DNA of 24,000 bases, taken from contig NZ_AGFF01000025.1 in NCBI RefSeq assembly GCF_000226215.1, forward strand, positions 38,374-62,373. Reading direction: 5' to 3'. Below, piece after piece: positions 1,833 through 22,955 of this stretch. The stretch's first letter is position 1; each line of letters begins with the position of its first letter. Below the pieces are notes generated by a model that saw nothing but the letters and a program-made list of their open reading frames with translations, did no database searches and was not told where the DNA came from. Source of the DNA: Dietzia alimentaria 72 (GTDB lineage: Bacteria > Actinomycetota > Actinomycetes > Mycobacteriales > Mycobacteriaceae). The translations under genes and the position numbers were made by a program.

Positions 1833-1940
1833 AAGCGGTCGTGGGGCACCTCGTGCTGTGGGTCTATTCGTTTGTGGTGTTCAGGCTACCCAGCCACTCC
1901 GACACGAAGCCCTCCGGCCTCGCCGGTAGTCTTCCGGCTC

Positions 1941-3209
1941 ATGAGCGCACAGGTGGTCGTGGTGGGCATCGGGGGCGACGGCTGGGACGGGCTCGACGAG
2001 GCTCGTCGCCGAGCTGTCGGCGCCGCCGGTGTGCTGCTCGGCGGGGAGCGTCATCTCGCGATGATCCCCGCCGGGATCGATGCCGTTCGGGAGCGCTGGC
2101 CCAGGCCGCTGCGGGCCGGTCTTGCTGAACTTCTCGAGCGCCACCGCGGGCGCCGGATAGTGGCGTTGGCCTCGGGCGATCCCCTTGTGGCCGGCGTGGC
2201 CACCACGCTGATCGACGTGCTCGGTGCCGATGCCGTAGAGGTGATGCCGGCGGTGTCCTCGGCGGCGCTCGCACGAGCCCGGATGCGCTGGCCCGCCGAG
2301 ACCTCGGTGGTTCTCCGCGATCACCGCGCCCTCGCCCGTGAACTCTCCCCGGGCCGCCGGATCCTCGTCCTGTCCGCCGACAGGCACACGCCCGCCGAGG
2401 TCGCCGCGATGCTCACCGCCGCCGGCTTCGGGGCGAGCGCCATGACCGTCCTGTCCGACTTGGGCGCCGCATCCGAGGCGCGCCAGACGTGCTCCGCGCG
2501 GGACTGGTCACCGGATCGGGTGGCCCCCGCGCTGCACGTGTTGGCCGTGGAATGCGCGGTCGGCGGCAGCGGGCTTCGCGGTAAAGGTCACGACGACGAC
2601 AACGCAGCCGCCCGCCCACTGGGCCTGGCCCCCGGACTTCCCGACGACGCGTTCCACAGCGACGGTCAGCTCACGCGCCGCGACCTGCGGGCCTCCGCCC
2701 TGTCCAGGCTCGCGCCTGCCGCCGGCCACCTGCTCTGGGACGTGGGCGCCGGGGCCGGCTCCGTGGGGATCGAGTGGATGCGGGCCCATCCGAGTTGCCG
2801 CACCGTGGCCGTTGAAGCCGATGCCACCCGCGCCGCGCGCATCGCCCGCAACGCCGCCACCCTCGGGGTCCCCGGGTTGGAGGTGGTCCACGGCAGGGCG
2901 CCCGATGCGCTGGCCGGGTTACCTCGTCCCGATGCGGTGTTCATCGGTGGGGGCGGCACAGCTGAGGGGCTTGTCAGACGGTGCTGGGAGGCGCTTGTGC
3001 CGGGCGGGCGGCTTGTCGCGCACGCGGTGACGCTGGAGACCGAGCGCGTGCTCCTGGACTCCCGCGCCGAGCTGGGGGGCGAACTGACGCGGCTCCACCT
3101 AGAGCACGCCGAGCCCATCGGCACCTTCACCGGCTGGGCTCCAGCGCGCGCGGTCGTGCAGTGGGCGGCCGTCAAGCCCTGGTCGACATCTGTAGAGGAG
3201 AGCTCGTGA
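1941..3209 (+). CDS. cobL: Precorrin-6Y C5,15-methyltransferase (decarboxylating), CbiE/CbiT fusion
   Basis: From ATG 1941: MSAQVVVVGIGGDGWDGL (CbiE-type start). C-terminal half has a SAM-methyltransferase motif, LWDVGAGAGSVGIEW, plus FIGGGG (CbiT-like). The ORF-track start at 1872 adds a non-conserved extension. The stop overlaps the cobM start. Confidence 0.85.
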   Translation: MSAQVVVVGIGGDGWDGLDEARRRAVGAAGVLLGGERHLAMIPAGIDAVRERWPRPLRAGLAELLERHRGRRIVALASGDPLVAGVATTLIDVLGADAVEVMPAVSSAALARARMRWPAETSVVLRDHRALARELSPGRRILVLSADRHTPAEVAAMLTAAGFGASAMTVLSDLGAASEARQTCSARDWSPDRVAPALHVLAVECAVGGSGLRGKGHDDDNAAARPLGLAPGLPDDAFHSDGQLTRRDLRASALSRLAPAAGHLLWDVGAGAGSVGIEWMRAHPSCRTVAVEADATRAARIARNAATLGVPGLEVVHGRAPDALAGLPRPDAVFIGGGGTAEGLVRRCWEALVPGGRLVAHAVTLETERVLLDSRAELGGELTRLHLEHAEPIGTFTGWAPARAVVQWAAVKPWSTSVEESS

Positions 3210-3964
3210 CCGTTCACTTTGTGGGTGCCGGACCCGGCGCTGCCGACCTGCTCACGCTCCGCGCCGCAGCGGCGCTGCGGGCGGCCGACGTGTGCCTCTA
3301 CGCCGGTACCTATCTGGACGGGGGCGTGCTCGAGCACTGCCGTCCCGAGGCGCGGCTAATCGACACCCAGTATCTCGATCTGGACGGCATTATCGCTGAG
3401 ATCACTGCCGCGCATTCAGACGGCCTGGACGTGGTCCGCCTGTGCTCGGGCGATCCGTCGCTGTACTCGGCGCTGGCGGAGCAGACCCGCCGGCTCGACG
3501 CCGCAGGTGTTCCCTGGGACGTGGTGCCGGGCGTGCCCGCGTACGCAGCAGCCGCTGCGGAACTCGGGGTGGAACTCACCGTGCCCGAGGTGGTGCAGTC
3601 GGTGGTGCTCACGCGTGTGCAGGCTCGGTCCACCGCTATGCCGTCGGCCGAGGCGCTGGAGAACTTTGCCGCAACCGGCGCCACCTTGGTGCTGCACCTG
3701 GCCATCACGCGGATCCGCGAACTCGCCGAACGCCTGGTGCCGACCCACGGTGCGGACTGCCCGGTGGCCGTGGTGGCCAACGCGAGCAGGCCGCACCGAG
3801 TGGAGCTGCGCGGCACACTCGCTGACATCGCGGACTCGGTTGAGGAAGCAGGTCTACGTCAGGCCGCGGTGATCCTTGTTAGCCGGGCACTCGAACGCCC
3901 GGGGCTCGCTGAGTCCTGGCTGTATGCCTCCGACCCCGAGCGGGCCGAAAAGCGGCGGAGGTAG
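3206..3964 (+). CDS. cobM: Precorrin-4 C11-methyltransferase
   Basis: GTG 3206 overlaps the cobL TGA (GTGA) with a GAGGAG RBS at 3195-3200. VTVHFVGAGPGAADLLTLRAAAALRAADVCLYAG is the tetrapyrrole-methylase N-terminal motif. CSGDPSLYSA and VPGVPAYAAAAA are typical CobM/CbiF blocks. Length of 252 aa is typical. Confidence 0.85.
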   Translation: MTVHFVGAGPGAADLLTLRAAAALRAADVCLYAGTYLDGGVLEHCRPEARLIDTQYLDLDGIIAEITAAHSDGLDVVRLCSGDPSLYSALAEQTRRLDAAGVPWDVVPGVPAYAAAAAELGVELTVPEVVQSVVLTRVQARSTAMPSAEALENFAATGATLVLHLAITRIRELAERLVPTHGADCPVAVVANASRPHRVELRGTLADIADSVEEAGLRQAAVILVSRALERPGLAESWLYASDPERAEKRRR

Positions 3965-4038: not shown

Positions 4039-4905
4039 TCAGCCCCTGGCCGCACCGACCTTCCAGTAGCCGGAGAAGGTGACGGCCTTCTTGTCCATGC
4101 CGACTTCCTGGACGAGGTGGCGGCGAAGCGAGGTCGCCAGGCCGGATTCGCCGCAGACCCACGCGTAGTCGACGTCGCTCGTCGCGCTCGCGTCCGCGGT
4201 GAGGGCGGCCAACACCGCCGTTCCGGGCGCGGCGTCCCCCCGTTCGTGGACGGTGATCTCCGCGGGCAGGCCCGTGCCGGCGAGCGCCGCGGCGGACGGG
4301 GCTTCGACGTGCGCGGTCACGCCTTCGCCGAGCCCGTGCAGGCCGCGGCGTCCCCGCTCCTCGAGGATCGCCAGCAGCGCCGGGACCGCGGTTTCGTCGG
4401 CCACGAGTAGCTGTCGCCGGGCGTCGTAGGTTGTGTAGAGCGCGCCGCCTGAGCGGAATCCGACGCGGTCGCCGACATCGACCGTGGTGGCCCACACCGA
4501 TCCGGGACCCGTATCGCCGTGGGTAACGATGTCGACGTCGATCTCGCCCTGCGAGCAGCGTAGTTCGCGGATCGTGTACCACCGGAGGCCGGGCTGCGCC
4601 TCCTGCGGCATCTCCGCGATTGCTGCCCGGACGTTGACGCGGTTGGCGTCGGGCATGTGCAACTGACCGTCCGCGCCGGGCATGAGCAGGCCGAAGTACT
4701 CATCGGGACCGACGAGCGAGTACCGGGTGAACTCGGGTGCGGCCAAGGTGATCCGGCGCATCACCGGGTTGAGTTCACGGACACGTGCCACGGTCGCCTC
4801 GAATTGCGCCTGCCCGTCGCGTTCGGCCACGTCGGCCATGGTGTTGCGATACCACAGGCGTGCGGCGCCAAAGACGATCTTGTCTTTGAGTTGAGCGAGC
4901 TGCAT
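4039..4905 (-). CDS. Siderophore-interacting protein (SIP/ViuB/DesF-like FAD-dependent ferric-siderophore reductase)
   Basis: From ATG 4905 (GGGAG RBS); an alternative ATG is at 4839. ATVARVRELNPVMRRITLAAPEF, GPDEYFGLLMP, LRWYTIREL and THGDTGPGSVWA fit a FAD_binding_9-type barrel. The C-terminal block YAWVCGESGLATSLRRHLVQEVGMDKKAVTFSGYWKVG is the SIP domain signature. The ORF-track extension to 5403 overlaps the MFS gene and is spurious. Confidence 0.8.
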   Translation of the reverse strand: MQLAQLKDKIVFGAARLWYRNTMADVAERDGQAQFEATVARVRELNPVMRRITLAAPEFTRYSLVGPDEYFGLLMPGADGQLHMPDANRVNVRAAIAEMPQEAQPGLRWYTIRELRCSQGEIDVDIVTHGDTGPGSVWATTVDVGDRVGFRSGGALYTTYDARRQLLVADETAVPALLAILEERGRRGLHGLGEGVTAHVEAPSAAALAGTGLPAEITVHERGDAAPGTAVLAALTADASATSDVDYAWVCGESGLATSLRRHLVQEVGMDKKAVTFSGYWKVGAARG

Positions 4906-4960
4906 AGATACTCCCGTATTGAAAAGTGACAGAGGAAAATGAGGCCAGTGCCTCGCTTCG

Positions 4961-6199
4961 TCAGGCCGCCGTGACGCCATGGCGCTCCTGGTGGCGCGCG
5001 CCCAGGAAGGTCCCGAGGAGCACGAGGACGATCGCGGCGATGAGCACGCCCGTGTATCCGACGAACTGGGCGAGCGCCAACGCGAGGCCGGCAGCGATGA
5101 ACGAGATTGCGAGCGCGAACGAGGTGAGAACCGTGAAATCCGTCCCCGCGGAACCGATTCTCGAGTAGTCCATATTGATCGTGTAGACCACGACATTGGC
5201 CATGGCATAGGTCGCCATGAACAGGCACAGGGCCACCGGGGTCCAGAGGATCGACGCCGAACCCAGGGCGAGGGGAAGCAGGCCGAGCGAGGAGAACGCC
5301 AGGAGCACGCCACCGAGGATGAGGGTGCGCCTCCGGCCGAGCCTGGCCACCAGCCATCCCGCGCCGAGAGAGGTGAGCACCGCGGGGATCGAGGCGACGA
5401 CACCTGTGACGATCCCGATCCGCGTCAGGGACCACCCGGCGTCGACGAGGGCGGGGGAGACGATTGCGTATCCGACCGCGGCGCCGATGTAGTAGAGCGG
5501 TACAACGACGAAAGTCCAGCTCCTGCAGCCCGGCTGACGGAAGACGGTCAGCAGGTCGGAGTACCCGGGCCGCTCGAGCACGATGTCCCGCGCCGGCTCG
5601 CGATAGGCCACGACCAGCGCCAGTGCGGTGGCGGTGAGCGCCGCTAGTACGAGGATCGCGGCGACCCACCCGAAGCGGTCGTAGATGAGGACCACCAGGC
5701 CGCCGCCGACGACGCTGCCGAGGTAGTTTCCTCCGACCTGGATGCCATTGCCCAGGCCACGCTCTCCGGCGGTGAGTAAGCGCACCGCGAGCGCGTCCGC
5801 GGCGACGTCCTGCGTCGCCGAGAAGACGACGTACAGGGCGCAGATCACCATGACCGGGCCAAGGTTGTCCGACGGGTCGGTGAAGGGCGCCAGCGCCAGC
5901 AGCGAGAGGACCAGGCCGAGCTGCAACGGGATGAGCCACGAGCGGTAGTGCCCGAAGCGGCGACTGCCATACCTGTCGACGAGGGGGGCCCAGAGCAACT
6001 TCAGCGGCCAGATGATGCCGATCGTCTGGAGCAGGCCCAGTGTCGCGAGAGAGGTCCCGCCCTCTCGCAGGATCGCGACGAGACCGATCGTGAGAAACCC
6101 GACGCCCAGCCATTGGGTGAAGTAGAGCGCGGTGATCAGGGGAAATCTCTGTGACTCCCGGCGGACGGCGCCGTCGGGGACGGCGGTGGTGGTCGGCAT
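4961..6199 (-). CDS. MFS permease of the AmpG / RhtX-FptX type (candidate single-component siderophore transporter)
   Basis: From ATG 6199 (GAGGAG RBS). Multiple hydrophobic helices. Diagnostic block YFTQWLGVGFL...PLKLLWAPLVDRYGSRRFGHYRSWL resembles the AmpG/RhtX family loop motif (KxLWAPxxD...RRxW). Lies directly downstream of the iron-box promoter region and upstream of the SIP gene. Confidence 0.75.
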   Translation of the reverse strand: MPTTTAVPDGAVRRESQRFPLITALYFTQWLGVGFLTIGLVAILREGGTSLATLGLLQTIGIIWPLKLLWAPLVDRYGSRRFGHYRSWLIPLQLGLVLSLLALAPFTDPSDNLGPVMVICALYVVFSATQDVAADALAVRLLTAGERGLGNGIQVGGNYLGSVVGGGLVVLIYDRFGWVAAILVLAALTATALALVVAYREPARDIVLERPGYSDLLTVFRQPGCRSWTFVVVPLYYIGAAVGYAIVSPALVDAGWSLTRIGIVTGVVASIPAVLTSLGAGWLVARLGRRRTLILGGVLLAFSSLGLLPLALGSASILWTPVALCLFMATYAMANVVVYTINMDYSRIGSAGTDFTVLTSFALAISFIAAGLALALAQFVGYTGVLIAAIVLVLLGTFLGARHQERHGVTAA

Positions 6200-6308
6200 C
6201 GTGCGGGCTCCTCGGCGGTGCGGGTCAGGGGTCGGGCACGGTCGGGTCTCGGTGCGGCGCCCCTGCGGTGGTGCGCGCGCCCGGTGCATTAACCCGATCC
6301 CGCTATCG

Positions 6309-6347
6309 CTAGGTTAGGGTAGCCAACCCATAATAAGGCAACCCTAA
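6309..6347. promoter_or_regulatory. IdeR/DtxR-type iron box(es) in the divergent siderophore promoter region
   Basis: 6309-6327 CTAGGTTAGGGTAGCCAAC matches the 19-bp consensus TTAGGTTAGGCTAACCTAA at 14/19 positions. The adjacent 6329-6347 CATAATAAGGCAACCCTAA matches 11/19 (10/12 in the right half). Outer arms TTAGGGT (6314-6320) and ACCCTAA (6341-6347) are inverted. A CATAAT -10-like hexamer sits at 6329-6334. The site lies between MFS ATG 6199 and decarboxylase GTG 6365. Confidence 0.7.
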
Positions 6348-6364
6348 ATCCGAGGAGTTCCCGG

Positions 6365-7909
6365 GTGAACCAGCATCTCCTGACCCACGAGACTGCCGGC
6401 GAGTACGTCGCCGGCATGTCCCGCGTCACCGACCTCGTCGCGGCCCACCTGGCCGCCACCGCCCCGTCCACGGGCGCCACCGTCGCAGAACTGACCCCCG
6501 CTGTGGAGGCGATCGACCTCGACTGTCCCGCCACCGATCTGGACAGCGCCCTGTCCGAGGTGACCGATCTCTACCTCCGTGACGCGGTCTGGTTCCACCA
6601 TCCGTCCTACGTGGCCCATCTCAACTGCCCCGTCGCGCTTCCCGCGGTCCTGGCCGAGGCCATCCTGGCCGCGGTGAACACCTCGGTCGACACCTGGGAC
6701 CAGAGTGTCGGAGGCACTCTCATCGAGCAGCGGCTCGTGCGTTGGACCGCCGACCGTATCGGCTTCGGCACCGATGCTGACGGCGTCTTCACCAGCGGCG
6801 GCACGCAATCGAACCTGCAGGCGCTCGTCCTGGCCCGGGGTGAGGCGATGCGTGGCGCGTCCGCCGCTGTGCCTGATGGGCAGCAACGACTCCGGATCCT
6901 CGCGACCGAGCACAGCCACTTCAGTGTGGTGAAGTCCGCTCGCATCATGGGGCTGCGTCCCGACGCGGTCATCTCCGTACCCACCGACGAGACGGGCGGT
7001 ATGTCGCTTACGTCCCTCCGCGATGCCCTCGACTCCCTCCGTGACCGCGACGAGATCGCCATGGCTGTCGTCGTCACCGCGGGGACAACAGACCTCGGAG
7101 TGATCGACCCTGTCGCCGGAGCCGCCGACCTGTGCGCCGAGTACGGTGCCTGGCTGCACGTGGACGCGGCGTACGGCGGAGGACTCCTCGTCTCCTCCCG
7201 TCGTCGCCACCTGCTCGAAGGGATCGATCGCGCCGACTCGGTGACGGTCGACTTCCACAAGACCTTCTTCCAGCCGATCAGTTCCAGCGCGTTAATCGTG
7301 CGTCGCGCCGCCACCTTGGCGCACGTGACCCATCACGCGGATTACCTCAATCCCCGCACGGCGGTGTCGCCCAACCAGGTCGACAAATCCATGCAGACGA
7401 CGCGTCGCTTCGACGCGCTCAAGCTCTGGATGACCCTGCGGGTGACCGGCGCCGATGCTCTCGGCGAGATGTTCGACGAGGTGATCGACCGGGCCCACGA
7501 GGTGTGGGACGAGCTGCGCTCGGATGGGCGTTTCGAGGTGGCCACCGAGCCGACCCTGAGCACCGTCCTCATGCGCTACCGACCGGAGGGGGTCAGCGCC
7601 GAGGAGGCGGACCTTCTCAACCCCCGCATCCGTCACGCCCTGCTCGGCCGCGGCGACGTCATGGTCGCGGGCACTGTCATCGACGGCCGCAGCTGGCTGA
7701 AATTCACCCTGCTCAACCCGGGGACCCCGCTGGAGCACCTCCGCGGGATCCTCGAGACGATCGCCGAGACCGGGGACCAACTGTTGGCAGAGGACGCGGC
7801 GGACAACCGAGAGGTTGGTCGGTGGCGTTCCGCCCGCGACCAACGGGGGGTCGTTCGCCTCGCGCAGCGTCCGTCCGAGTTCGCCTCGACCGGGAAGCAG
7901 GTTCGCTGA
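6365..7909 (+). CDS. desA: PLP-dependent group II amino-acid decarboxylase (DesA/DfoJ-like; lysine, ornithine or diaminobutyrate decarboxylase supplying the diamine)
   Basis: GTG 6365 with a GAGGAG RBS 7 nt upstream. FTSGGTQSNLQALVLAR, HVDAAYGG and the PLP-lysine block SVTVDFHKTFFQPISSSALIV are group II decarboxylase motifs. The stop TGA overlaps the next ATG (TGATG, 7907-7911). Confidence 0.85.
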   Translation: MNQHLLTHETAGEYVAGMSRVTDLVAAHLAATAPSTGATVAELTPAVEAIDLDCPATDLDSALSEVTDLYLRDAVWFHHPSYVAHLNCPVALPAVLAEAILAAVNTSVDTWDQSVGGTLIEQRLVRWTADRIGFGTDADGVFTSGGTQSNLQALVLARGEAMRGASAAVPDGQQRLRILATEHSHFSVVKSARIMGLRPDAVISVPTDETGGMSLTSLRDALDSLRDRDEIAMAVVVTAGTTDLGVIDPVAGAADLCAEYGAWLHVDAAYGGGLLVSSRRRHLLEGIDRADSVTVDFHKTFFQPISSSALIVRRAATLAHVTHHADYLNPRTAVSPNQVDKSMQTTRRFDALKLWMTLRVTGADALGEMFDEVIDRAHEVWDELRSDGRFEVATEPTLSTVLMRYRPEGVSAEEADLLNPRIRHALLGRGDVMVAGTVIDGRSWLKFTLLNPGTPLEHLRGILETIAETGDQLLAEDAADNREVGRWRSARDQRGVVRLAQRPSEFASTGKQVR

Positions 7910-9264
7910 TGACCACAGGCCCCGTGCGCGACCTCATCGGCATCGGCCTGGGCCCCTTCAATCTGGGCCTGGCCGCGCTGACCCACGACCTGCCAGACCT
8001 CGATGGCGTCTTCCTCGAATCGCGGGATGCGTTCTCGTGGCACCCGGGGATGATGATCGAGGGAGCGACGATCCAGGTGCCCTTCATGGCTGACCTGGTG
8101 ACGATGGCCGACCCCACGAACCGTTTCAGCTTCCTCAATCACCTCAAGCAGGTCGGCCGCCTCTATCCCTTCTACATACGGGAGAACTTCAACCCCCTTC
8201 GTGCCGAGTACGACCAGTACTGCCGATGGGTTGCCGACCAGCTCGAGACCATCCGTTGGGGCCACGAGGTGATGGCCGTCGAGCAGGAGGCCGACGGCAC
8301 CTACCTCGTCACGGCGCGCCGGTCAGATGGGTCGATCAGCTCCCTCCGCGCCCGGCACGTGGTCCTCGGCGTCGGGACCGAGCCCTCGCTCCCGCCCGTC
8401 ACCGAGCACCTGGGTGGCCCGGTGACGCACAGTGCAGGCTATCTGGACGCCAGAAGCGAACTGCGATCTCGGCGGAGCATCACTCTCGTGGGCAGCGGAC
8501 AGTCCGCCGCGGAGATCTACCTCGATCTGCTCGAGGGCGTCACCGAACACGGTTACCACCTGACCTGGGTGACGCGCTCGCCCAGGTTCTTCCCGATGGA
8601 GTACACCAAACTCACCCTCGAGATGACCTCCCCCGACTACGCCCGCTACCACCGCGCGCTGCCGATGGAGCGGCGAGACACCCTCGGGCGGGAGCAGCGC
8701 GCCCTCTACAAGGGGATCAGCGCCGACCTCGTCGACGCCATCTACGACACGCTCTACCGGATCCGCATCGAGAGCGGCAGGAGCGTGCCCACCACGCTGC
8801 TGACGAACTGTGAAGTCCGGGACGCCTCCTGGGACGATCACTCCGGCCGCTACACGCTGGGGGTACACCACCGGGAACAGGACACGACGGTGACGGTGGC
8901 CAGCGAGGGCCTTGTCCTGGCGACCGGCTACCGCCCGCGCACACCGGACTTCCTCGCACCCGTCGCGGACCGCATCCGCCGCGACGCGCGCGGCCGATAT
9001 GACACGGCATCCGACTACAGCGTCGACGTCGCCGGGAGGATCTTCGTCCAGAACGCCGAGGAGCACACCCACAGCGTCCTCGCGCCGGACCTGGGAATGG
9101 GCGCCTACCGTAACTCGGTGATCATCGCGGCGATCACCGGCCGGGAGGTCTACCCCGTCGAGGAGCGGATCGCCTTCCAACACTTCGGGGTCGAGGACAT
9201 CCACTCCCCCATGGTCACTCGCGGCGACGCCCGCGTCGCCGCGGCGGCGGGGGTGGGCCGATGA
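7909..9264 (+). CDS. desB: FAD/NADPH-dependent diamine (lysine/ornithine-type) N-hydroxylase, IucD/DesB/AlcA family
   Basis: From ATG 7909: LIGIGLGPFNLGLAAL (FAD GxGxxN motif), ITLVGSGQSAAEI (NADPH motif), GLVLATGY (the DxxxLATGY-type motif). Length 451 aa. The ORF-track start at 7132 is an out-of-context extension overlapping the decarboxylase. Confidence 0.9.
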   Translation: MTTGPVRDLIGIGLGPFNLGLAALTHDLPDLDGVFLESRDAFSWHPGMMIEGATIQVPFMADLVTMADPTNRFSFLNHLKQVGRLYPFYIRENFNPLRAEYDQYCRWVADQLETIRWGHEVMAVEQEADGTYLVTARRSDGSISSLRARHVVLGVGTEPSLPPVTEHLGGPVTHSAGYLDARSELRSRRSITLVGSGQSAAEIYLDLLEGVTEHGYHLTWVTRSPRFFPMEYTKLTLEMTSPDYARYHRALPMERRDTLGREQRALYKGISADLVDAIYDTLYRIRIESGRSVPTTLLTNCEVRDASWDDHSGRYTLGVHHREQDTTVTVASEGLVLATGYRPRTPDFLAPVADRIRRDARGRYDTASDYSVDVAGRIFVQNAEEHTHSVLAPDLGMGAYRNSVIIAAITGREVYPVEERIAFQHFGVEDIHSPMVTRGDARVAAAAGVGR

Positions 9265-11609
9265 GCAGCTACTCGATGGTCACGCTTATCGGCCGCGTCA
9301 CCCTCGAGTCGGTGGAACCGACCGGTGACGACGACGACGTGGCGCGGCTCCTGCACGGGTGGGTCACCCATCCCAAGTCCAGCTTCTGGGGCATGCAGGG
9401 GTGGACGCGGAAGCAGACCCGTGCGGCTTTCGAGGAGATTCACGCCGACCCGCACCACGACGCGTGGCTCGGACGGGTGGACGGGCAGCCGACTTTCCTG
9501 GTCGAGACATACGACCCGAGGCACAGCGTCCTGGCTGCGCACTACCGGGCCACCCCGGGGCAACTGGGTATGCACGTGCTCGTCGCCCCCACGGACACCC
9601 CGGTGCGGGGATTGACCTCGGAGGTCTTCCGCGCGGTGATGCATTTTTGTTTCCGGGACCCGCAGATCACCGAGGTCGTCGTGGAGCCGGACGTGCGCAA
9701 CCATGCCATTCACGCCAAGAACGCCGCCGCCGGATTCGTCGTCGACCGCACGATTACCCTGCCGGACAAGCAGGCACTGCTCAGCTTCTGCACCGTGGCT
9801 GCCTTCGCGACGAGCGAGCTGGAGCGCGGCGACGGCCGGGATCGCGGGCCGCGGGTCGAGCACCTCAATCCCGATGTCATGGCCCGTGCCCACCGGCACA
9901 TCGCGGCAAAGGCGCTCGGCGAGTTCGCTCACGAGCGGCTCCTGGAACCCGCCGCGACCGATGCTGGACGGTGGGAGATCACCGCGGGGCGCGCCCGATA
10001 CTCGTTCTCCGCTTCCCGACACCAGCCCGAGCACTGGCGCATCGACCCGGCGAGCATCGAGCGTGAGGTCGACGGCCACGCCACCGGGGTCGACGCCCTG
10101 ATCGTCGTCGGCGACCTGCACCAGGAACTCGGAATCCCGGAACACCTGCGCTCGACCTACCTCGAGGAGCTCAGCGGCACGCTCGCGAGTCTGGCGTACA
10201 AGTGGCACCACCAGCGACATTCCAGTGCTGACCTCGTCCACGCCGACTTCCAGACCGTCGAGGCGGCGATGACGGAAGGACATCCCGCCTTTGTCGCGAA
10301 CAACGGTCGGATCGGTTTCTCCGCCTCTGACCACGCGGCGTGGTCCCCCGAGGCGGGGGCCGACGTGCGTCTCGTCTGGGTCGCTGTGCGCCGCTCCCTG
10401 GCCGGACTCTCGCTCACCGAGGACTTCTCCGAGGAGGCCCTGTACAGCACAGAGCTCGACGCGGCCGACCTGGCGCGGTTCACTCGTCGTCTCGAAGCGA
10501 AGGGGGGTAGCCGCCGGGACCACCTCTTCATGCCGATCCACCCGTGGCAGTGGGACAACAAGCTCGCGGTGACCTTTGCCGCCGACATCGCCCGGGGCGA
10601 CATCATCCACCTCGGGACGACCGCCGACCGCTACCGGGCACAGCAGTCAATCCGCACCTTCTTCAACCGTGACCGGCCCGAGCGGTGCTACGTCAAGACG
10701 GCGTTGTCGATCCAGAACATGGGCTTTCTCCGTGGGCTGTCCCCGCGGTACATGCGGGACACACCCGCGGTCAACGACTGGGTCGCGCAGGTCGTAGCGG
10801 ACGACCCGGAGCTGACCGCATGCAACTTCCGGGTGCTGCGCGAGGTCGCCGCCGTCGGATATACCGGCGACGTCTACCACACCCTCGGCTCGGCCAATCC
10901 CCATACGAAGATGATCGCGGCCCTGTGGCGGGAGTCGCCCGTGCCGAAGCTGGCAGCGGGGCAGCGGGTGATCTCGATGTCGGCGCTGCTGCACCGGGAC
11001 GCGCAGGGCACCTCGTTCATCGGAGAGCTCATCGCGGCTAGTCCGCTGGCGGCGGGCGAGTGGGTGCGCCGGTGGCTGCGCGCCTACCTGCGGCCGATCG
11101 TCCACTGCCTCGGTGTGCACGATCTGGCCTTCATGCCGCACGGGGAGAACGTCATCCTGGTGCTGGAGGACCACTGTCCCACCGGCATCTTCATGAAGGA
11201 CATCGGCGAGGAGGTCGTCGTCATGGGTGAGCGCGAGCTCCCGCGGGATGTCGAGCGCATCCGGCACGTCCTCGACCCGAGGACCCAGTCGTTGTCGATC
11301 CTCACAGACGTCGTCGACGGGGTGCTCCGCTTTGTCTGCGAGATCCTCGACGACGACGAGGTGCTCGCCGAGGAGACCTTCTGGGCCCTCGTCGCGGATT
11401 GCGTTGAGGCACACGCTCGGGACCATCCCAGGGCGGCCCGGTTGGACCTGCTGCGGCAGAGGTTCGAACACTCCTGCCTCAACCGTCTGCAACTGCGCAA
11501 CACCCTGCAGATGGTGGATCTGGCCGATCCGGCAGGATCGCTGATCACGGCCGGGATGCTCGACAACCCACTGCACGCTGCGACGCGTGCGCCGGAGAGG
11601 GCGTCGTGA
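9261..11609 (+). CDS. Fusion of hydroxamate N-acyltransferase (IucB/DesC/AlcB-like, about aa 1-185) and NIS synthetase (IucA/IucC family, DesD/AlcC-like); same architecture as DfoC/BibC
   Basis: ATG 9261 overlaps the upstream TGA (ATGA). N-terminal domain: HGWVTHPKSSFWGM, LVETYDPRHS, GMHVLVAP, EPDVRNHAIHAKN. The remainder, NPDVMARAHRHIAAKALGEFAHERLLEP...MPIHPWQW...SIRTF...KTALSIQNMGFLRGLS...MPHGENVIL, is typical IucA/IucC with a FhuF-like C-terminus. Confidence 0.9.
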   Translation: MSSYSMVTLIGRVTLESVEPTGDDDDVARLLHGWVTHPKSSFWGMQGWTRKQTRAAFEEIHADPHHDAWLGRVDGQPTFLVETYDPRHSVLAAHYRATPGQLGMHVLVAPTDTPVRGLTSEVFRAVMHFCFRDPQITEVVVEPDVRNHAIHAKNAAAGFVVDRTITLPDKQALLSFCTVAAFATSELERGDGRDRGPRVEHLNPDVMARAHRHIAAKALGEFAHERLLEPAATDAGRWEITAGRARYSFSASRHQPEHWRIDPASIEREVDGHATGVDALIVVGDLHQELGIPEHLRSTYLEELSGTLASLAYKWHHQRHSSADLVHADFQTVEAAMTEGHPAFVANNGRIGFSASDHAAWSPEAGADVRLVWVAVRRSLAGLSLTEDFSEEALYSTELDAADLARFTRRLEAKGGSRRDHLFMPIHPWQWDNKLAVTFAADIARGDIIHLGTTADRYRAQQSIRTFFNRDRPERCYVKTALSIQNMGFLRGLSPRYMRDTPAVNDWVAQVVADDPELTACNFRVLREVAAVGYTGDVYHTLGSANPHTKMIAALWRESPVPKLAAGQRVISMSALLHRDAQGTSFIGELIAASPLAAGEWVRRWLRAYLRPIVHCLGVHDLAFMPHGENVILVLEDHCPTGIFMKDIGEEVVVMGERELPRDVERIRHVLDPRTQSLSILTDVVDGVLRFVCEILDDDEVLAEETFWALVADCVEAHARDHPRAARLDLLRQRFEHSCLNRLQLRNTLQMVDLADPAGSLITAGMLDNPLHAATRAPERAS

Positions 11610-13984
11610 ACCGGCGCTGGAGGGTGCGGCGCGACCCATGGGGAATCCCCCACTGCTGGGGCGCCACACTGAATGACCTCGCCTACGCCCAGGGATGGAC
11701 GGCCGCCGTCGATCGGGCCTGGCAACTGGAAATCGAGCGGAGGCGGTCTGAGGCCACGACGACCGCCGTCCTCGGCACCTCGGAGTGGGATGAGTTCGCC
11801 GTGGCCGCCAGGCTCCCCGAGATGTCCCGGGCCGCTGTCGCCTCGGTCGACGAGGACACAGCCGCCTGGCTCGCGGCTTTCGTCGAGGGGGTGAACGCGG
11901 GCCTGGCAGAGGGAGCCCGGCGCGCGCCGGAGTTCCTCGCCACCGGCACCGAGCCCGGACACTGGGAGCCCCACAGCGCGGCGGGGGTGTTCCTCGTCCA
12001 ACACGTGCTCATGGGGTCTTTCGGGCACCAACTGTGGCGCCGCCACGTGCGTGCGACGCTCGGCGAGACAGGCATCGACCTGCTCAGCCACGAAGCTGTG
12101 CCTTTTGGTGGCAGCAACGCCTGGGCGCTGACCGGGTCTCGTACCGCGAGCGGCGCCCCGATGATCGCGGCCGACCCACATCGCGTGCTCGAGGCCCCGG
12201 GGATCTACCAGCAGGTTCGGCTGACGACCCCGACGATCGACGTCACGGGCCTCGCCTTCCCGGGAGTGCCCGGAGTGGCGCACTTCGGCCACGCCGGCAC
12301 GGTCGCCTGGGCCATCACGCACGCCATGGCGGACTACCAACAGATCGCACCCGGTTCCGATCCCGCGATGCCACACCCGCTCACCCCGGCCGGCATCGAC
12401 GGCGATATCGCGCTGGGAGCCATGCGCCGACTGCTGACAGCGCGGACCGTGGACGATGTCGACGCGGCGTTCGATGACTGGGTGGAGCCGGTCAACGCCG
12501 TGATCATCGCCGGATCAGACGGAGTCGTCCGCGAGCGCGTCGCGGGCCGCATGGTGACGCAGGAAGGAACGACATTCGCGGTGCCTCCCGCTCGGCGGGA
12601 TCTCGCCGAGGGAGAGGTCGTCGTCCATGCCAATGATCGGCGCCCCTCCGTGGCGGGGCTCGGCGAGGAGTTCGCGGCCGCGCACCGGGGCAGCCGTATC
12701 GCAGAACTGCTCGCGCATCGCGAGCGGTGGGACAGTGAGTCCCTCTCGACGATCCAGATGGACACCCGGCTCGGTTCGTGGCCGACGTACCGGGCCCTGC
12801 TGCAACGGTTGGAAATCGACGAACGGTCGGACCCGGGCGCGATGACCGCGCAGGTCCGCCGGCGGCTGCTCGGCTGGGACGGACACATGGACGCCGGAAG
12901 CGTCGAGGCCGCCCTCTTCGCGCACTGGCGGACCGAGTTCGTCCGCCTCATCGCAGCCCACCCACGGCTCGAGGCCCTGCACGCCCCGACCGGGCTGGCC
13001 CCGTTCTTCGCCCCGTGGACGGACCCGGTCGCGCGAATCGGATCAGGCCTCGAGAGGGTCGTCGCCCGCGGCGGACATCACGGTCTTCCCGTCGCCGAGC
13101 TGGCGGCCGCAGCCCTGGGACGAGTGGCCGACACGCTCGGTGACCAGACATGGGGAGAGTCCCATGTCGCCGCCTTCAGCCTCGTCCATGGGCACAGTCC
13201 CGTCCCGGAGCCGCAGCCGCTGGGCGGGGACGGTGACTGCGTCCTCGCGACCGCGGCCGCCCCCGGACTGAGCGATCAGTGCTGGCGCGGGCCGGTCGCC
13301 AGACTCGTCTGGGACCTGGCCGGAGGGAGCACCTGGATAGTTCCTCTGGGTGCCGACGGCCCGTCCGACTCCCCCCACGCCCTCGACCAGCACGACCTGT
13401 GGCGCGCCGGCGCTCAGATCCCCACACGACAGGACACCCCCATGACCAACCTGATCTTCCGCCCCCTGCGCCCGACGGACGACGCCCCGATGATCCACGA
13501 ATGGGCCACCCGGCCCCGTGGACGCTTCTGGGGGATGGCGGACAAGAGCGTGGAGGAGATCCGTGACATCTACGCCTTCGTCGACTCCCTCGAGGCGCAC
13601 TGGGCGTGGATCGTCGAGGACGCCGGGCGGGCGGTGGCGCTGGTGCAGACCTACGAGCCGGAGCACGACCCGATCTCAGGGGTCTACGCGGTCCAGCCGG
13701 GGGATGTCGGCGCGCACGTCTTCGTCGCACCCGGCGAGGACGCCCTGCGTACCGCGGCGGGGATCCTCGCATGGATCTTCGCCGACCCGGCGGTCCGGCG
13801 TCTGGTGGGCGAACCGGATGCGGAAAACCACGCGATGCTCACCCGACTGCAGCAGAGCGGCTTCGAGTTCGCTGACGAGGTCACCATCGGCGACAAGCTC
13901 GCGAGGCTGGTCTTTCTCACCCGAGAGCGGTTCGAGTTCATGGCGTCAGACACGGTCACCCGGGGCGGGTGGCCGCGAGAATGA
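11606..13984 (+). CDS. Fusion of a penicillin-acylase-family Ntn hydrolase (aa 1-612, no signal peptide) and a second IucB/DesC-type N-acyltransferase domain (aa 613-792)
   Basis: GTG 11606 overlaps the upstream TGA (GTGA), with a GGAGAGG RBS. Acylase blocks: RRDPWGIPHCWG, AYAQGWTAAVDRAWQLEIERR, nucleophile motif GG-S170-NAWALTG (Ser codon 12113-12115), MIAADPH, GVPGVAHFGH. From ATG 13442 in the same uninterrupted frame: RPRGRFWGM, VQTYEPEHDP, GAHVFVAP, EPDAENHAM, LVFLTRERF. These blocks are paralogous to the acyltransferase domain of the upstream gene. Confidence 0.85.
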   Translation: MNRRWRVRRDPWGIPHCWGATLNDLAYAQGWTAAVDRAWQLEIERRRSEATTTAVLGTSEWDEFAVAARLPEMSRAAVASVDEDTAAWLAAFVEGVNAGLAEGARRAPEFLATGTEPGHWEPHSAAGVFLVQHVLMGSFGHQLWRRHVRATLGETGIDLLSHEAVPFGGSNAWALTGSRTASGAPMIAADPHRVLEAPGIYQQVRLTTPTIDVTGLAFPGVPGVAHFGHAGTVAWAITHAMADYQQIAPGSDPAMPHPLTPAGIDGDIALGAMRRLLTARTVDDVDAAFDDWVEPVNAVIIAGSDGVVRERVAGRMVTQEGTTFAVPPARRDLAEGEVVVHANDRRPSVAGLGEEFAAAHRGSRIAELLAHRERWDSESLSTIQMDTRLGSWPTYRALLQRLEIDERSDPGAMTAQVRRRLLGWDGHMDAGSVEAALFAHWRTEFVRLIAAHPRLEALHAPTGLAPFFAPWTDPVARIGSGLERVVARGGHHGLPVAELAAAALGRVADTLGDQTWGESHVAAFSLVHGHSPVPEPQPLGGDGDCVLATAAAPGLSDQCWRGPVARLVWDLAGGSTWIVPLGADGPSDSPHALDQHDLWRAGAQIPTRQDTPMTNLIFRPLRPTDDAPMIHEWATRPRGRFWGMADKSVEEIRDIYAFVDSLEAHWAWIVEDAGRAVALVQTYEPEHDPISGVYAVQPGDVGAHVFVAPGEDALRTAAGILAWIFADPAVRRLVGEPDAENHAMLTRLQQSGFEFADEVTIGDKLARLVFLTRERFEFMASDTVTRGGWPRE

Positions 13985-14588
13985 TGCGGACCGTGCGCTC
14001 GATCTCCTCGTCTTCGGCTTTGCGACCCATCGTCATCGGGGCGAGAAAAAGTGGTGCCACCAGGGCGTTGATCACTGATTCCGGCGTGTGCTCGGCGGAG
14101 ATCTCATTGCGGGCCAATGCGCGCTCGACCATCTGCTGCCATTCGTTCCTGACAGGTGCGTACTGGGCCACGACCAGCCTCCCGAATTCGGGGTAGCGCC
14201 GACTGGCCAGGAGCAACGTGGTGGCCACCTCGACAGGGTCGGCGGCGAACGTCGCGATGCGGTGCGCGAATTCACGGACGTCCTCGGCCCAGGAGCCGGT
14301 GTCCGGCGGGGCTATGCGGCGCACATGCGTCGACAGTCCCTCCACGAGCACGTCCTCGGGTGTGGGCCACCACCTGTACAGGGTTTTACGACTCACACCA
14401 GCGCGCTCGGCCATCTCGACCATGGTGAAATCGATCCTCCCCTCGGCGAGGAACGCCAGGCATGCCTCTCTCACGGCACGCCGAACCTCCGCGCTTCGTC
14501 CGCCGGAGCGGGTGCGCACGCGCGGGGCGGGTTCGGATTCGTCCGGTGTCGACCCGCCGCCGTGAGATGACGTGACCTGCGAATCCAT
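13956..14588 (-). CDS. TetR/AcrR family transcriptional regulator
   Basis: The helix-turn-helix block FTMVEMAERAGVSRKTLYRWWPTPEDVL is a classic TetR_N. I prefer ATG 14588 (GGGAGG RBS 7 nt upstream) over the track's GTG 14612. The 3' end overlaps the convergent siderophore gene by 29 bp. Confidence 0.85.
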   Translation of the reverse strand: MDSQVTSSHGGGSTPDESEPAPRVRTRSGGRSAEVRRAVREACLAFLAEGRIDFTMVEMAERAGVSRKTLYRWWPTPEDVLVEGLSTHVRRIAPPDTGSWAEDVREFAHRIATFAADPVEVATTLLLASRRYPEFGRLVVAQYAPVRNEWQQMVERALARNEISAEHTPESVINALVAPLFLAPMTMGRKAEDEEIERTVRIILAATRPG

Positions 14589-20766: not shown

Positions 20767-21387
20767 TCACATCCAGTCGACGGACAGGGGCTTCCGCCTG
20801 CCCCAGCCAACGGTCTGCAGTAGTGGCTCGTCGAGCTCCCGGGCGGGGTGGCCGATGCACAGGTAGGCCAGCGGTCGGGCACCGTCGGGAATCGGCACGG
20901 CGCCGCTCAGGTGCTCGGGATCCAGGAGGCTCACCCAGCCCATGCCCAGCCCCTCGGCCGTGGTTGCCAGCCAAAGCAGGGTGATGGCGGAGATGACACT
21001 GTATTCAGACGCCGCGGGCATCGAGGTGGTTCCGAGCACCGGCCCTTCGGGGGGTAGGTGACTCACCACGAGACCGACGGGCGCCTGCAGGATCCCCTCC
21101 AGACGAAGAGTGTTGTAGAGCTCGAGGCGCTTCCCCGAGAAGCGTTTGGCCTCGGCTGCACGGACATCGCGGAAACCCTCGTGGACGGCGTGGCGCACCG
21201 CCGGATCCTGAACCACGGTCACGTGCCACGGTTGACTGAGGCCGACGCTCGGCGCCACCGCGAACACGGCGAGAAGCCTGTCGATCGTCTCCCGCGGCAC
21301 CGGCGTCGTGTGGAAATGACGGTGGTCCCGTCGGGTGGCGAGCACCCGCCAGAGCGCGTCGAGATCATCGTGGTTCATGGGCGTCAT
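20767..21387 (-). CDS. bluB: 5,6-dimethylbenzimidazole synthase (BluB, nitroreductase fold)
   Basis: From ATG 21387: ATRRDHRHF, APSVGLSQPWH, FSGKRLELYNTLRLEGILQAP, LWLATTAEGLGMGWVS, LAYLCIGHP, GWGRRKPL. These align block-for-block with my recollection of Sinorhizobium BluB. The ATG overlaps the cobIJ TGA (ATGA). Confidence 0.85.
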   Translation of the reverse strand: MTPMNHDDLDALWRVLATRRDHRHFHTTPVPRETIDRLLAVFAVAPSVGLSQPWHVTVVQDPAVRHAVHEGFRDVRAAEAKRFSGKRLELYNTLRLEGILQAPVGLVVSHLPPEGPVLGTTSMPAASEYSVISAITLLWLATTAEGLGMGWVSLLDPEHLSGAVPIPDGARPLAYLCIGHPARELDEPLLQTVGWGRRKPLSVDWM

Positions 21388-22955
21388 GCCCGCACGAACC
21401 TCGGGCTCCACACCCGGCCGGAATCTGTCACCCGGGTCCCGGACGCACCCACGATGAGCAGGCATTTCATGTCGATCGAGCTGCAGTCGAGATCGCCGAG
21501 GGTGGTGACGGTCAACGACTCCTCGGCCCGTCCCACGTCGCGGCCCACCACCACGGGCGTGGCCGGATCGCGATGACGCAGCAGCACGTCCCGCGCGTCG
21601 GCGACCTGGTGGGTGCGCGAGCGGGAGGCCGGGTTGTAGATCGCCAGGACCAGGTCCGCGGTGGCGATCGCGTCCAGGCGTCTCGCGACCACGTCCCACG
21701 GTTTGAGGCGGTCGGACAGGCTCACCACCGCGAAATCGGCGCCGATCGGCGCACCAGCGCGCGCGGCCACCGCCTGGACGGCGGACACCCCGGGCGCCAC
21801 GCGGATCTCGACCCCGTGATGCCGCGGGTCCTCGGCGGCCTCGAACACGGCCGAGGCCATGCCGAACACCCCGGCATCGCCACCGGAGACCACTGCGACC
21901 TTCTCGCCGGTGGCGGCGAGCTCGAGCGCGAGCCCGGCCCGGTCCACCTCGACCGTGTTGCCCGAGCAGTGGCGACGAAGGCCGGGGCGCTGGGCGACCC
22001 GGTCAACGTAGGGCGCGTACCCCACGACGTGGTCGACCTCGGCGAGGATGCGGGACACCTCCGGGGTGAGCCAGTCCTGCGGCCCCGGACCCAGGCCCAC
22101 CACGTGGACCACCCCGCCCTCGCCGGACGACGGGGCCGCCGCGGTCAGTGGTTCGGGGCGGCGTCCCGTGGGGTCCTGGTGGTGGGAGTCTCCGGGGACG
22201 ACGACGAGGGAGAAGTACGGCACGGTGGCCGCGTCGACCTCGCGGACGGGGTGATGCGCCTCTGCATCCGTCGAGGCACGCTCCACATAGACCGCCCCGT
22301 CGAGCCGGCCGGCGGACTCGAGGGCGCGGCGCACAGCCGGGAAGTTGCGGCCGAGCTTCATGATGATCGCGCCGTCGGTGTCGGCCAGTCGCCGGGCGAG
22401 TTCCGCCTCGGGCAGAGTTCCGGGCAGCACGGTCAGCACGTCTGTCTGCCGCACCAGGGGGGTCGCGGCCGCGGCGGTGGCGGCGGCAAAGGCGGGGACC
22501 CCGGGCACGATCTCGGTGTGGAACTGCTCCGAGAGGCGATCGTGCATGTACATGAACGAGCCGTAGAACAGTGGGTCGCCCTCGGCCAGCAGGACCACTG
22601 TCCGGCCAGCGGACAGGTGCCCGGCGAGCCGCTGTGCGCTGCGCTCGTAGAAATCGGCGATCGCGCCGGCGTACCCGCCGGGGTGGTCGGCGACGCCCGT
22701 GGTGACCGGGTACTCGAGCACCTCCTCCACGGCTGCGGAGGGGATGAGATCGGCCGCGATGCGGCGGGCGTTGGACTGCTTTCCGCGTCCGGCGTGGAAG
22801 GCCACCACGTCGGCGGAGCTGATGAGCCGGGCGGCCTTGAGCGTCATGAGCTCGGGATCGCCCGGCCCCACGCCGACGCCGTAGAGCCGGCCCGTGCCAC
22901 CTGCAGCCACGGTGCCGGGCGCCGCAGCGTTGTCGGGTGCGTGCGCGGAGGTCAT
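21384..22955 (-). CDS. cobIJ: Bifunctional precorrin-2 C20-methyltransferase / precorrin-3B C17-methyltransferase
   Basis: N-terminal half: RLYGVGVGPGDPELMTLKAARLISSADVVAF, LAEGDPLFYGS (CobI). Second half: VVHVVGLGPGPQDWLTPEVSRILAEVDHVVGY, VSGGDAGVFGMAS (CobJ). The ATG overlaps the cobH TGA (ATGA, 22952-22955). Confidence 0.9.
   Translation of the reverse strand: MTSAHAPDNAAAPGTVAAGGTGRLYGVGVGPGDPELMTLKAARLISSADVVAFHAGRGKQSNARRIAADLIPSAAVEEVLEYPVTTGVADHPGGYAGAIADFYERSAQRLAGHLSAGRTVVLLAEGDPLFYGSFMYMHDRLSEQFHTEIVPGVPAFAAATAAAATPLVRQTDVLTVLPGTLPEAELARRLADTDGAIIMKLGRNFPAVRRALESAGRLDGAVYVERASTDAEAHHPVREVDAATVPYFSLVVVPGDSHHQDPTGRRPEPLTAAAPSSGEGGVVHVVGLGPGPQDWLTPEVSRILAEVDHVVGYAPYVDRVAQRPGLRRHCSGNTVEVDRAGLALELAATGEKVAVVSGGDAGVFGMASAVFEAAEDPRHHGVEIRVAPGVSAVQAVAARAGAPIGADFAVVSLSDRLKPWDVVARRLDAIATADLVLAIYNPASRSRTHQVADARDVLLRHRDPATPVVVGRDVGRAEESLTVTTLGDLDCSSIDMKCLLIVGASGTRVTDSGRVWSPRFVRA

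Follow-up and report, generated by a model that had tools for sequence, protein, structure and literature searches.

A penicillin-amidase gene of desferrioxamine biosynthesis (des) clusters was named desG in 2017, when a role in aryl capping of desferrioxamines (DFOs) was proposed for its product (Cruz-Morales et al., PMC5812494), and the desJGH locus of Streptomyces coelicolor was defined by Augustijn et al. in 2025 (PMC12161575). In that organism both desG and desH are needed for acetyl-capped desferrioxamine B (DFO-B): its level is about 1000-fold lower in a desG knockout and about 16-fold lower in a desH knockout, with DFO-E increased, and strains that lack desGH make uncapped DFOs only (PMC12161575). 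According to the published model, DesG takes the succinyl group off N-hydroxy-N-succinylcadaverine, and the amine so released is acetylated by DesH; desG and desH form a single gene in S. atratus and in Micrococcus CH3 and CH7, and the fusion has been argued to exploit a high local concentration of the intermediate (PMC12161575). Here we compare with these systems the gene at 11606-13984 (plus strand) of a 24,000-nucleotide stretch of Dietzia alimentaria 72 (contig NZ_AGFF01000025.1, positions 38,374 to 62,373; hereafter the window). We consider it likely that this gene encodes a DesG::DesH fusion, an accessory capping module of DFO-type siderophore biosynthesis that would work by removing a succinyl group and re-acylating the product. 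As the pair and its fusions have already been described, the window gene is a Janibacter-type member of a known family and not a new one, and its correct annotation is desG::desH rather than that of a novel PvdQ-like enzyme.

The gene and its predicted parts are as follows.

11606..13984, plus strand: desG::desH fusion open reading frame (ORF), 792 residues, 85.8-kDa precursor (ORF with Pfam PF01804 and PF13523)
11606..12112, plus strand: predicted DesG alpha chain, residues 1-169, 18.6 kDa, no signal peptide (alignment to the alpha chains of PDB 35sz, 4hsr and penicillin G acylase from their mature N-termini)
12113..13441, plus strand: predicted DesG beta chain, residues 170-612, from the Ser170 nucleophile (in 35sz and 4hsr the beta chain begins with SNAW/SNNW aligned with S170)
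13442..13984, plus strand: DesH domain, residues 613-792, 20.2 kDa, an IucB/DesC-type N-hydroxy-amine acyltransferase (PF13523 and PDB sequence matches)

The ORF starts with GTG, runs for 792 codons to a TGA stop and overlaps the end of the preceding desC::desD gene through a GTGA (11606-11609). Its amidase part carries the motifs RDPWGIPH (residues 9-16), AQGW (28-31), DRAWQLE (36-42), GGSNAW (168-173) and AADPH (188-192), and its acyltransferase part FWGM (641-644), QTYEPEHDP (681-689), GAHVFVAP (702-709) and EPDAENH (736-742); Ser170 is encoded by AGC at 12113-12115 and Met613 by the ATG at 13442. An earlier account of this DNA made from its letters and predicted frames (the sequence-only reading) had reported the frame, these motifs, the serine, the internal ATG and the overlap, each of which we located as it described, and its two domain assignments were borne out by profile searches: Pfam Penicil_amidase (PF01804) matches the 792-residue ORF with E=2.7e-103, and Acetyltransf_8 (PF13523) matches residues 623-760 with E=1.8e-35 (122 bits vs a cut-off of 27). 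There is no space for a signal peptide, because eight residues precede the first alpha-chain block, RDPWGIPH, and because query residue 6-7 aligns with residue 8-13 of the mature alpha chains in PDB; the family consensus N-terminus is likewise M-x3-V-x-RDxWGIPH. The signal peptide and periplasmic feature typical of the S45 family are absent, and DesG::DesH is predicted to be cytoplasmic, as had been proposed.

The C-terminal domain is related to the acyltransferase domain that is fused to the synthetase in its own operon, and the suggestion that the two are paralogs holds: they share 32% identity (E=2e-29), the blocks of the desC::desD protein being FWGM (residue 42), ETYDPRH (82), GMHVLVAP (103) and EPDVRNH (142). 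Sequence matches to the DesH domain in PDB are DfoC (5o7o, E=4e-23), NcdE and MbtK, and the GNAT-type fold and motifs of DfoC (Erwinia amylovora, PDB 5O7O), DesC and IucB are the same as those of the DesH domain. DesH nonetheless represents a separate paralogous clade: in a neighbor-joining tree of 20 domains, built with no support values, the window domain groups with the DesH of Janibacter, Streptomyces, Micromonospora, Kribbella and Glycomyces, and the DesC domains fall apart from this clade. Across 36 fused homologs, 32 DesH positions are conserved in 35 or more, and W642, H704, E736, P737, D738 and N741 in all of them.

The sequence-only reading knew of no characterized acylase::acyltransferase fusion; besides those published for S. 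atratus and Micrococcus CH3/CH7, the family as a whole is dominated by such proteins. A search recovered 2458 homologs; of the top 120, 102 combine PF01804 and PF13523 in a single protein; fused homologs span Streptomyces, Micromonospora, Nonomuraea, Actinoplanes, Dactylosporangium, Glycomyces and others. The window matches both the antiSMASH 'desGH' rule (PF01804 fused to PF13523 or no more than 1 kb from it) and the 'desABCD' rule of PMC12161575, and the module is co-located with desABCD. The sequence-only reading rightly mentioned a penicillin-amidase-like gene next to des genes, which is desG (PMC5812494), and its general idea of acyl exchange on the N-hydroxy-diamine is essentially the published DesG/DesH model (PMC12161575).

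Among individual relatives, the best match is found in Janibacter sp. GS2 (83% identity), where the operon and the order of its genes are the same; there, desG (P0002, 606 residues) and desH (169 residues) are split, with a GTGA overlap and a junction one base shorter. The same divergent major facilitator superfamily (MFS) gene, desA, desB, desC::desD and desG::desH, with both fusions, are present in Micromonospora sp. Llam0 (P0033, locus L024), although its uncharacterized protein is about 42% identical, 890 residues long and equipped with a longer linker. Compared by description, S. coelicolor DesG (SCO4049) and DesH (SCO4050) share the PF01804 and PF13523 pair, the association with desABCD and (probably, in the window) with iron regulation, and the lack of a signal peptide; they differ in being encoded by separate genes at a distant locus with desJ. 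The window DesG domain has 612 residues vs 782 in S. coelicolor and is about 170 residues shorter because of clade-specific deletions.

The active site was assessed by counting residue conservation over 43 aligned homologs. G169, S170, N171, H192 (β23), R193 (β24), H226 (β57), F227 (β58), T238 and the oxyanion residue N343 are invariant (43/43), as is Y201 (β32); H239 (β70; 12320-12322) is His in 10 sequences, the Janibacter group, and Asn in the other 33. S170 aligns with β1 of 35sz and 4hsr and N343 with Asn β245 of 35sz. The protein therefore has the features by which the S45 family of N-terminal nucleophile (Ntn) hydrolases is recognized, namely a Gly-Ser nucleophile at the alpha/beta junction, His or Gln at β23 and an oxyanion Asn, and with the catalytic set S170, H192 and N343 kept in all 43 homologs, the serine nucleophile is intact, as had been supposed. 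In the AlphaFold2 model (mean predicted local distance difference test score, pLDDT, 84; predicted template modeling score, pTM, 0.85), the alpha chain is helical; its pLDDT exceeds 80 for the most part and drops at residues 164-166, immediately ahead of the cleavage site. The best sequence match in PDB is 35sz (E=9e-65), a 'penicillin acylase family protein' that closely resembles the DesG family consensus; its chains A and C correspond to a separate alpha chain of 195 residues and a beta chain of 576 residues, the latter beginning with SNAW aligned with S170. By analogy, this chain split supports autoprocessing at the S170 site in the family. A literature search found no paper describing 35sz, which may be a DesG, perhaps the first structure of one.

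In terms of fold, the nearest structures are not those of the enzymes with which this protein had been compared. Foldseek searches of PDB ranked the D-succinylase of Cupriavidus (7EA4/7EBY, about 1e-27) and the class III glutaryl-7-aminocephalosporanic acid acylase 4HSR of Pseudomonas sp. N176 (8e-26) ahead of class I cephalosporin acylases (about 1e-20 to 1e-22), MacQ (about 1e-16 to 1e-18) and penicillin G acylase (PGA) and PvdQ (about 1e-11). Like DesG, the two best matches have a beta chain that begins with SN.W...DPHR, and 4HSR shares R24β, Y32β, H57β, F58β and H70β with the window protein; both act on dicarboxylic acyl groups. They differ from it in that they show 20-25% identity, act on beta-lactam or D-amino-acid substrates, have no link to siderophore genes and carry no fused acyltransferase. 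PvdQ and E. coli PGA share with DesG the S45 Ntn-hydrolase fold and the Ser β1 nucleophile, and PvdQ acts in siderophore maturation, but both are periplasmic enzymes with signal peptides and a hydrophobic acyl pocket (Phe β24), and they are far weaker matches. A PvdQ-like identity was hence rejected on the fold ranking, on the Arg rather than Phe at β24 and on the score against the PvdQ equivalog model (NCBIfam NF051460; 25.1 bits vs a cut-off of 950), and the 'PvdQ-type' label of the sequence-only reading has to be given up.

The same residue at β24 bears on the substrate. It is Phe in PGA and PvdQ, and Arg in 4HSR (R24) and D-succinylase (R305) (active-site table, PMC11241749). Modeling of the class III acylase 4HSR assigned substrate-stabilizing roles to R24β, Y32β, H57β, H70β, H178β, N242β and Y467β (PMC6712217). 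Their counterparts in the window protein are identical at five of these positions, R193/R24β, Y201/Y32β, H226/H57β, H239/H70β and N343/N242β, H178β and Y467β being outside the mapping. Because the β24 Arg and the other shared residues are those of the class III glutaryl acylase and D-succinylase, the DesG pocket appears suited to an acyl group with a terminal carboxylate, for example succinyl, which favors a desuccinylase over an enzyme with a phenylacetyl or fatty-acyl pocket. The set of Arg β24, Tyr β32, His β57 and His or Asn β70, common to glutaryl and succinyl amidases, would thus lend independent sequence-based support to the desuccinylase model. As for the fatty or aryl cap that had been proposed earlier, it is possible as such, yet it is not indicated by the hydrolase pocket, which points to a dicarboxylic (succinyl) substrate. 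Within class III cephalosporin acylase, His70β is a specificity hotspot. Given the His/Asn difference between clades at β70, the substrate range of DesG may differ between them.

These observations can be combined in a mechanism in which the cytoplasmic precursor would cleave itself before Ser170, giving chains of 18.6 kDa (alpha) and 67.2 kDa (beta, with DesH still attached). The N-hydroxy-N-succinyl-diamine (HSC) would be made by the DesC domain of the DesC::DesD protein, and the DesG Ntn-hydrolase, through an Arg193 (β24) pocket like that of the dicarboxyl-acyl amidases, would strip succinyl from a part of the HSC pool. The attached DesH would at once re-acylate the freed N-hydroxy-diamine with a monocarboxylic acyl-coenzyme A (acyl-CoA), acetyl being the most likely group and aryl or fatty acyl possible ones. 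The resulting chain-terminating cap monomer would let DesD build linear capped DFOs of the DFO-B type, and not only macrocyclic ones of the DFO-E type; the predicted products of the organism are accordingly capped linear DFOs. The domains, conserved residues, operon and DesH orthology come from the present analysis, and the requirement for desG and desH in DFO-B formation from the S. coelicolor literature; our inferences concern self-cleavage of the precursor, the substrate of the desuccinylase, which group forms the cap, and channelling between domains.

That the two domains are encoded in one frame depends on a single base at their junction.

13437..13441, plus strand: C5 run underlying the fusion (junction alignments with Janibacter sp. 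GS2, a Logan contig and seven Janibacter species)

A residual Shine-Dalgarno sequence, AGGA (13431-13434), stands ahead of this run, and the ATG after it (13442) is the ancestral start of desH. In the alignment the window reads CAGGACACCCCCATGACC where GS2 has CAGGAGA-CCCCGTGACG. The claim of one uninterrupted frame is correct for the sequence as given, although it hinges on one C in this homopolymer; the frame problem near 13430-13445 that had been named as a refuting condition is a genuine concern, the C5 run being one C longer than in the closest relatives. When the loss of one C from 13437-13441 is simulated, a 612-residue DesG results, ending in a TGA that is overlapped by the ATG of a 180-residue DesH. 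The extra C reflects a fusion of very recent origin or else an error in sequencing, and the encoded activities are the same in either arrangement.

Several points weigh against the reading that we favor. A literature search found no biochemical assay of any DesG, and a 2026 paper still terms DesG a 'putative hydrolase' and both DesG and DesH 'putative'. The argument from Arg β24 is one by analogy. Furthermore, relative to homologs of 780-1000 residues, the DesG of the Janibacter clade is without about 51 residues after residues 247-259 (β78) and 16 after residue 327; in the window these deletions lie at 12344-12385 (residues 247-260) and about 12586 (residue 327), and the loop that remains (residues 246-262) is modeled with pLDDT below 50. 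Micrococcus strains with a fused desGH in the des cluster make aryl-capped DFOs (PMC5812494), so the window protein may attach an aryl cap like theirs and not the acetyl cap known from S. coelicolor, either being compatible with the sequence. The same strains are the principal argument for a synthetic role, under which DesG would be an aryl or acyl transferase that puts phenylacetyl on N-hydroxy-diamine monomers or dimers and so generates aryl-DFOs (Cruz-Morales 2017), and penicillin acylases do catalyze reversible phenylacetyl transfer (PMC5812494). We regard this role as improbable: the invariant β24 Arg is that of succinyl- and glutaryl-specific enzymes and not the Phe of PGA, to which DesG is only distantly similar in structure; S. 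coelicolor has desG and makes no aryl-DFO, and what its desG knockout loses is acetyl-capped DFO-B (PMC12161575); and a CoA-dependent DesH tethered to DesG can explain any cap. A PvdQ-like or catabolic role, whether fatty-acyl trimming of a siderophore precursor or cleavage of the hydroxamate amides of ferrioxamine after its import so as to release or recycle iron, would have a precedent for trimming in PvdQ and might be linked with the siderophore-interacting reductase gene nearby (4039-4905). Nevertheless, it is highly improbable for a cytoplasmic protein that reaches 25 bits with the PvdQ equivalog model, where the cut-off is 950, and has Arg in place of the hydrophobic β24 residue, and the phenotype in S. 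coelicolor genetics is biosynthetic (PMC12161575).

The desuccinylase and acyltransferase reading leaves two explanations for the extra C. On one of them, the real genome has four C's, and a 612-residue desG and a 180-residue desH are coupled through an ATGA overlap with unchanged function. The nine other Janibacter or Janibacter-like loci are all split, so the window fusion could be an error: desG and desH are separate and in different frames in seven of seven Janibacter species, with a 4-nucleotide ATGA or GTGA overlap behind a conserved GGAGA Shine-Dalgarno sequence, and also in different frames in two metagenomic Janibacter-like contigs that span the junction. The window differs from them by one homopolymer base, the removal of which restores the ancestral arrangement exactly, it retains the internal AGGA and ATG, and its inter-domain spacing is the shortest among the 36 fused homologs (16 residues vs 24-73), from which the fusion would be a plain concatenation. 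We nonetheless hold an artefact to be rather unlikely, as fusion is the majority state across the wider family and the other Pfam-matched genes of the window show no frame break. Moreover, in a Janibacter-like locus with 72% identity (L002, Logan contig SRR25399850_227059; junction region 1938-2008) desG and desH were joined independently by a different change, a 51-nucleotide insertion that encodes a Cys/Gly/Ser-rich linker, with AAGGAGA and GTG kept at the old desH start, so that fusion recurs in this clade. The internal Shine-Dalgarno sequence of the window reads GGACA in place of GGAGA, a weakening to be expected when a fusion has made coupling superfluous. On the other explanation, which we put forward tentatively, the window has caught a fusion at its moment of origin, with a single-base insertion in a split-gene Janibacter lineage giving one polypeptide that has no evolved linker. 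Since the internal Shine-Dalgarno sequence and ATG are kept, both fused and free DesH could then be made. Neither an exact-sequence look-up of the window protein nor a metagenome scan for the junction with four or five C's gave a match, and a metagenome scan for relatives returned matches of 64-80% identity, the 80% match covering residues 182-310 only. More generally, fusion and fission of desG and desH recur by way of tiny changes at the ATGA overlap, and if the window fusion is real and functional, it would offer a natural test of whether tethering channels the N-hydroxy-diamine from the desuccinylase to the acyltransferase.

The fused gene is the last of four plus-strand genes, desA, desB, desC::desD and desG::desH, which overlap each other by 1 to 4 nucleotides and constitute a predicted translationally coupled operon. 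The genes upstream of desG::desH, including two on the opposite strand, are listed below.

6365..7909, plus strand: desA, pyridoxal phosphate (PLP)-dependent amino-acid decarboxylase (PF00282, E=1.6e-61; 88.5% identity to GS2 over residues 1-200)
7909..9264, plus strand: desB, diamine N-monooxygenase (PF13434, E=6e-116)
9261..11609, plus strand: desC::desD, DfoC-type fusion of an acyltransferase, an IucA/IucC nonribosomal peptide synthetase-independent siderophore (NIS) synthetase and an FhuF-like domain (PF13523, PF04183, PF06276)
4961..6289, minus strand: divergent MFS transporter, candidate siderophore exporter (PF07690, E=2.8e-29)
4039..4905, minus strand: siderophore-interacting protein (SIP; FAD_binding_9 + SIP), DesF/DesJ-like ferric-siderophore reductase (PF08021 and PF04954)

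The likely start of desB is the ATG at 7909, which overlaps the stop of desA (TGATG); we place it there because PF13434 begins at residue 266 of the long ORF. Its ortholog in Janibacter sp. GS2 has 457 residues, and desC::desD has as its counterpart there the same 782-residue gene. The start of the SIP gene at 4905 is similarly a candidate, with a GGGAG Shine-Dalgarno sequence. On the basis of Pfam matches, the long N-terminal extension of ORF 7132-9264 and the ORF at 4761-6113 (minus strand) were rejected as real coding extents. Janibacter sp. GS2 and Micromonospora sp. Llam0 both have the MFS gene in this place as well. At the corresponding position of GS2, the MFS gene is present and the SIP gene absent; a SIP (desJ-like) gene adjoins the fused desGH in a Streptomyces locus.

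Synteny with relatives stops directly after desG::desH. The end of the operon is placed there from this loss of synteny only, because no intrinsic terminator was found after 13984 and the next ORF, 14088-14570 (plus strand, 160 residues, 104 nucleotides past desG::desH), has neither a Pfam match nor any resemblance to the GyrI-like gene located after desH in GS2; it is possibly a spurious ORF.

A further conserved element lies in the region that separates the MFS gene from desA.

6310..6349, no strand: AT-rich, iron-box-like candidate operator region of the TTAGG-N9-CCTAA type (conserved ahead of desA in seven Janibacter loci)

This AT-rich island, set in surroundings of roughly 69% G+C, is probably a DtxR/IdeR-type operator for the divergent MFS/SIP and des operons, and iron control of the des operon is probable; its candidacy derives from cross-species conservation only. 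The element has five mismatches to the IdeR/DmdR1 consensus of Streptomyces and Mycobacterium, a scan for which gave no match at three or fewer mismatches, and matches to a published degenerate iron-box pattern were no commoner than expected by chance.

Beyond these genes, tetrapyrrole (corrin-type) methylase genes lie on either side of the siderophore locus, at 1872-3964 (plus strand) and 20767-22955 (minus strand), and probably belong to cobalamin biosynthesis. A nitroreductase-family gene adjoins the second set, and in these flanks synteny with Janibacter sp. GS2 is lost.

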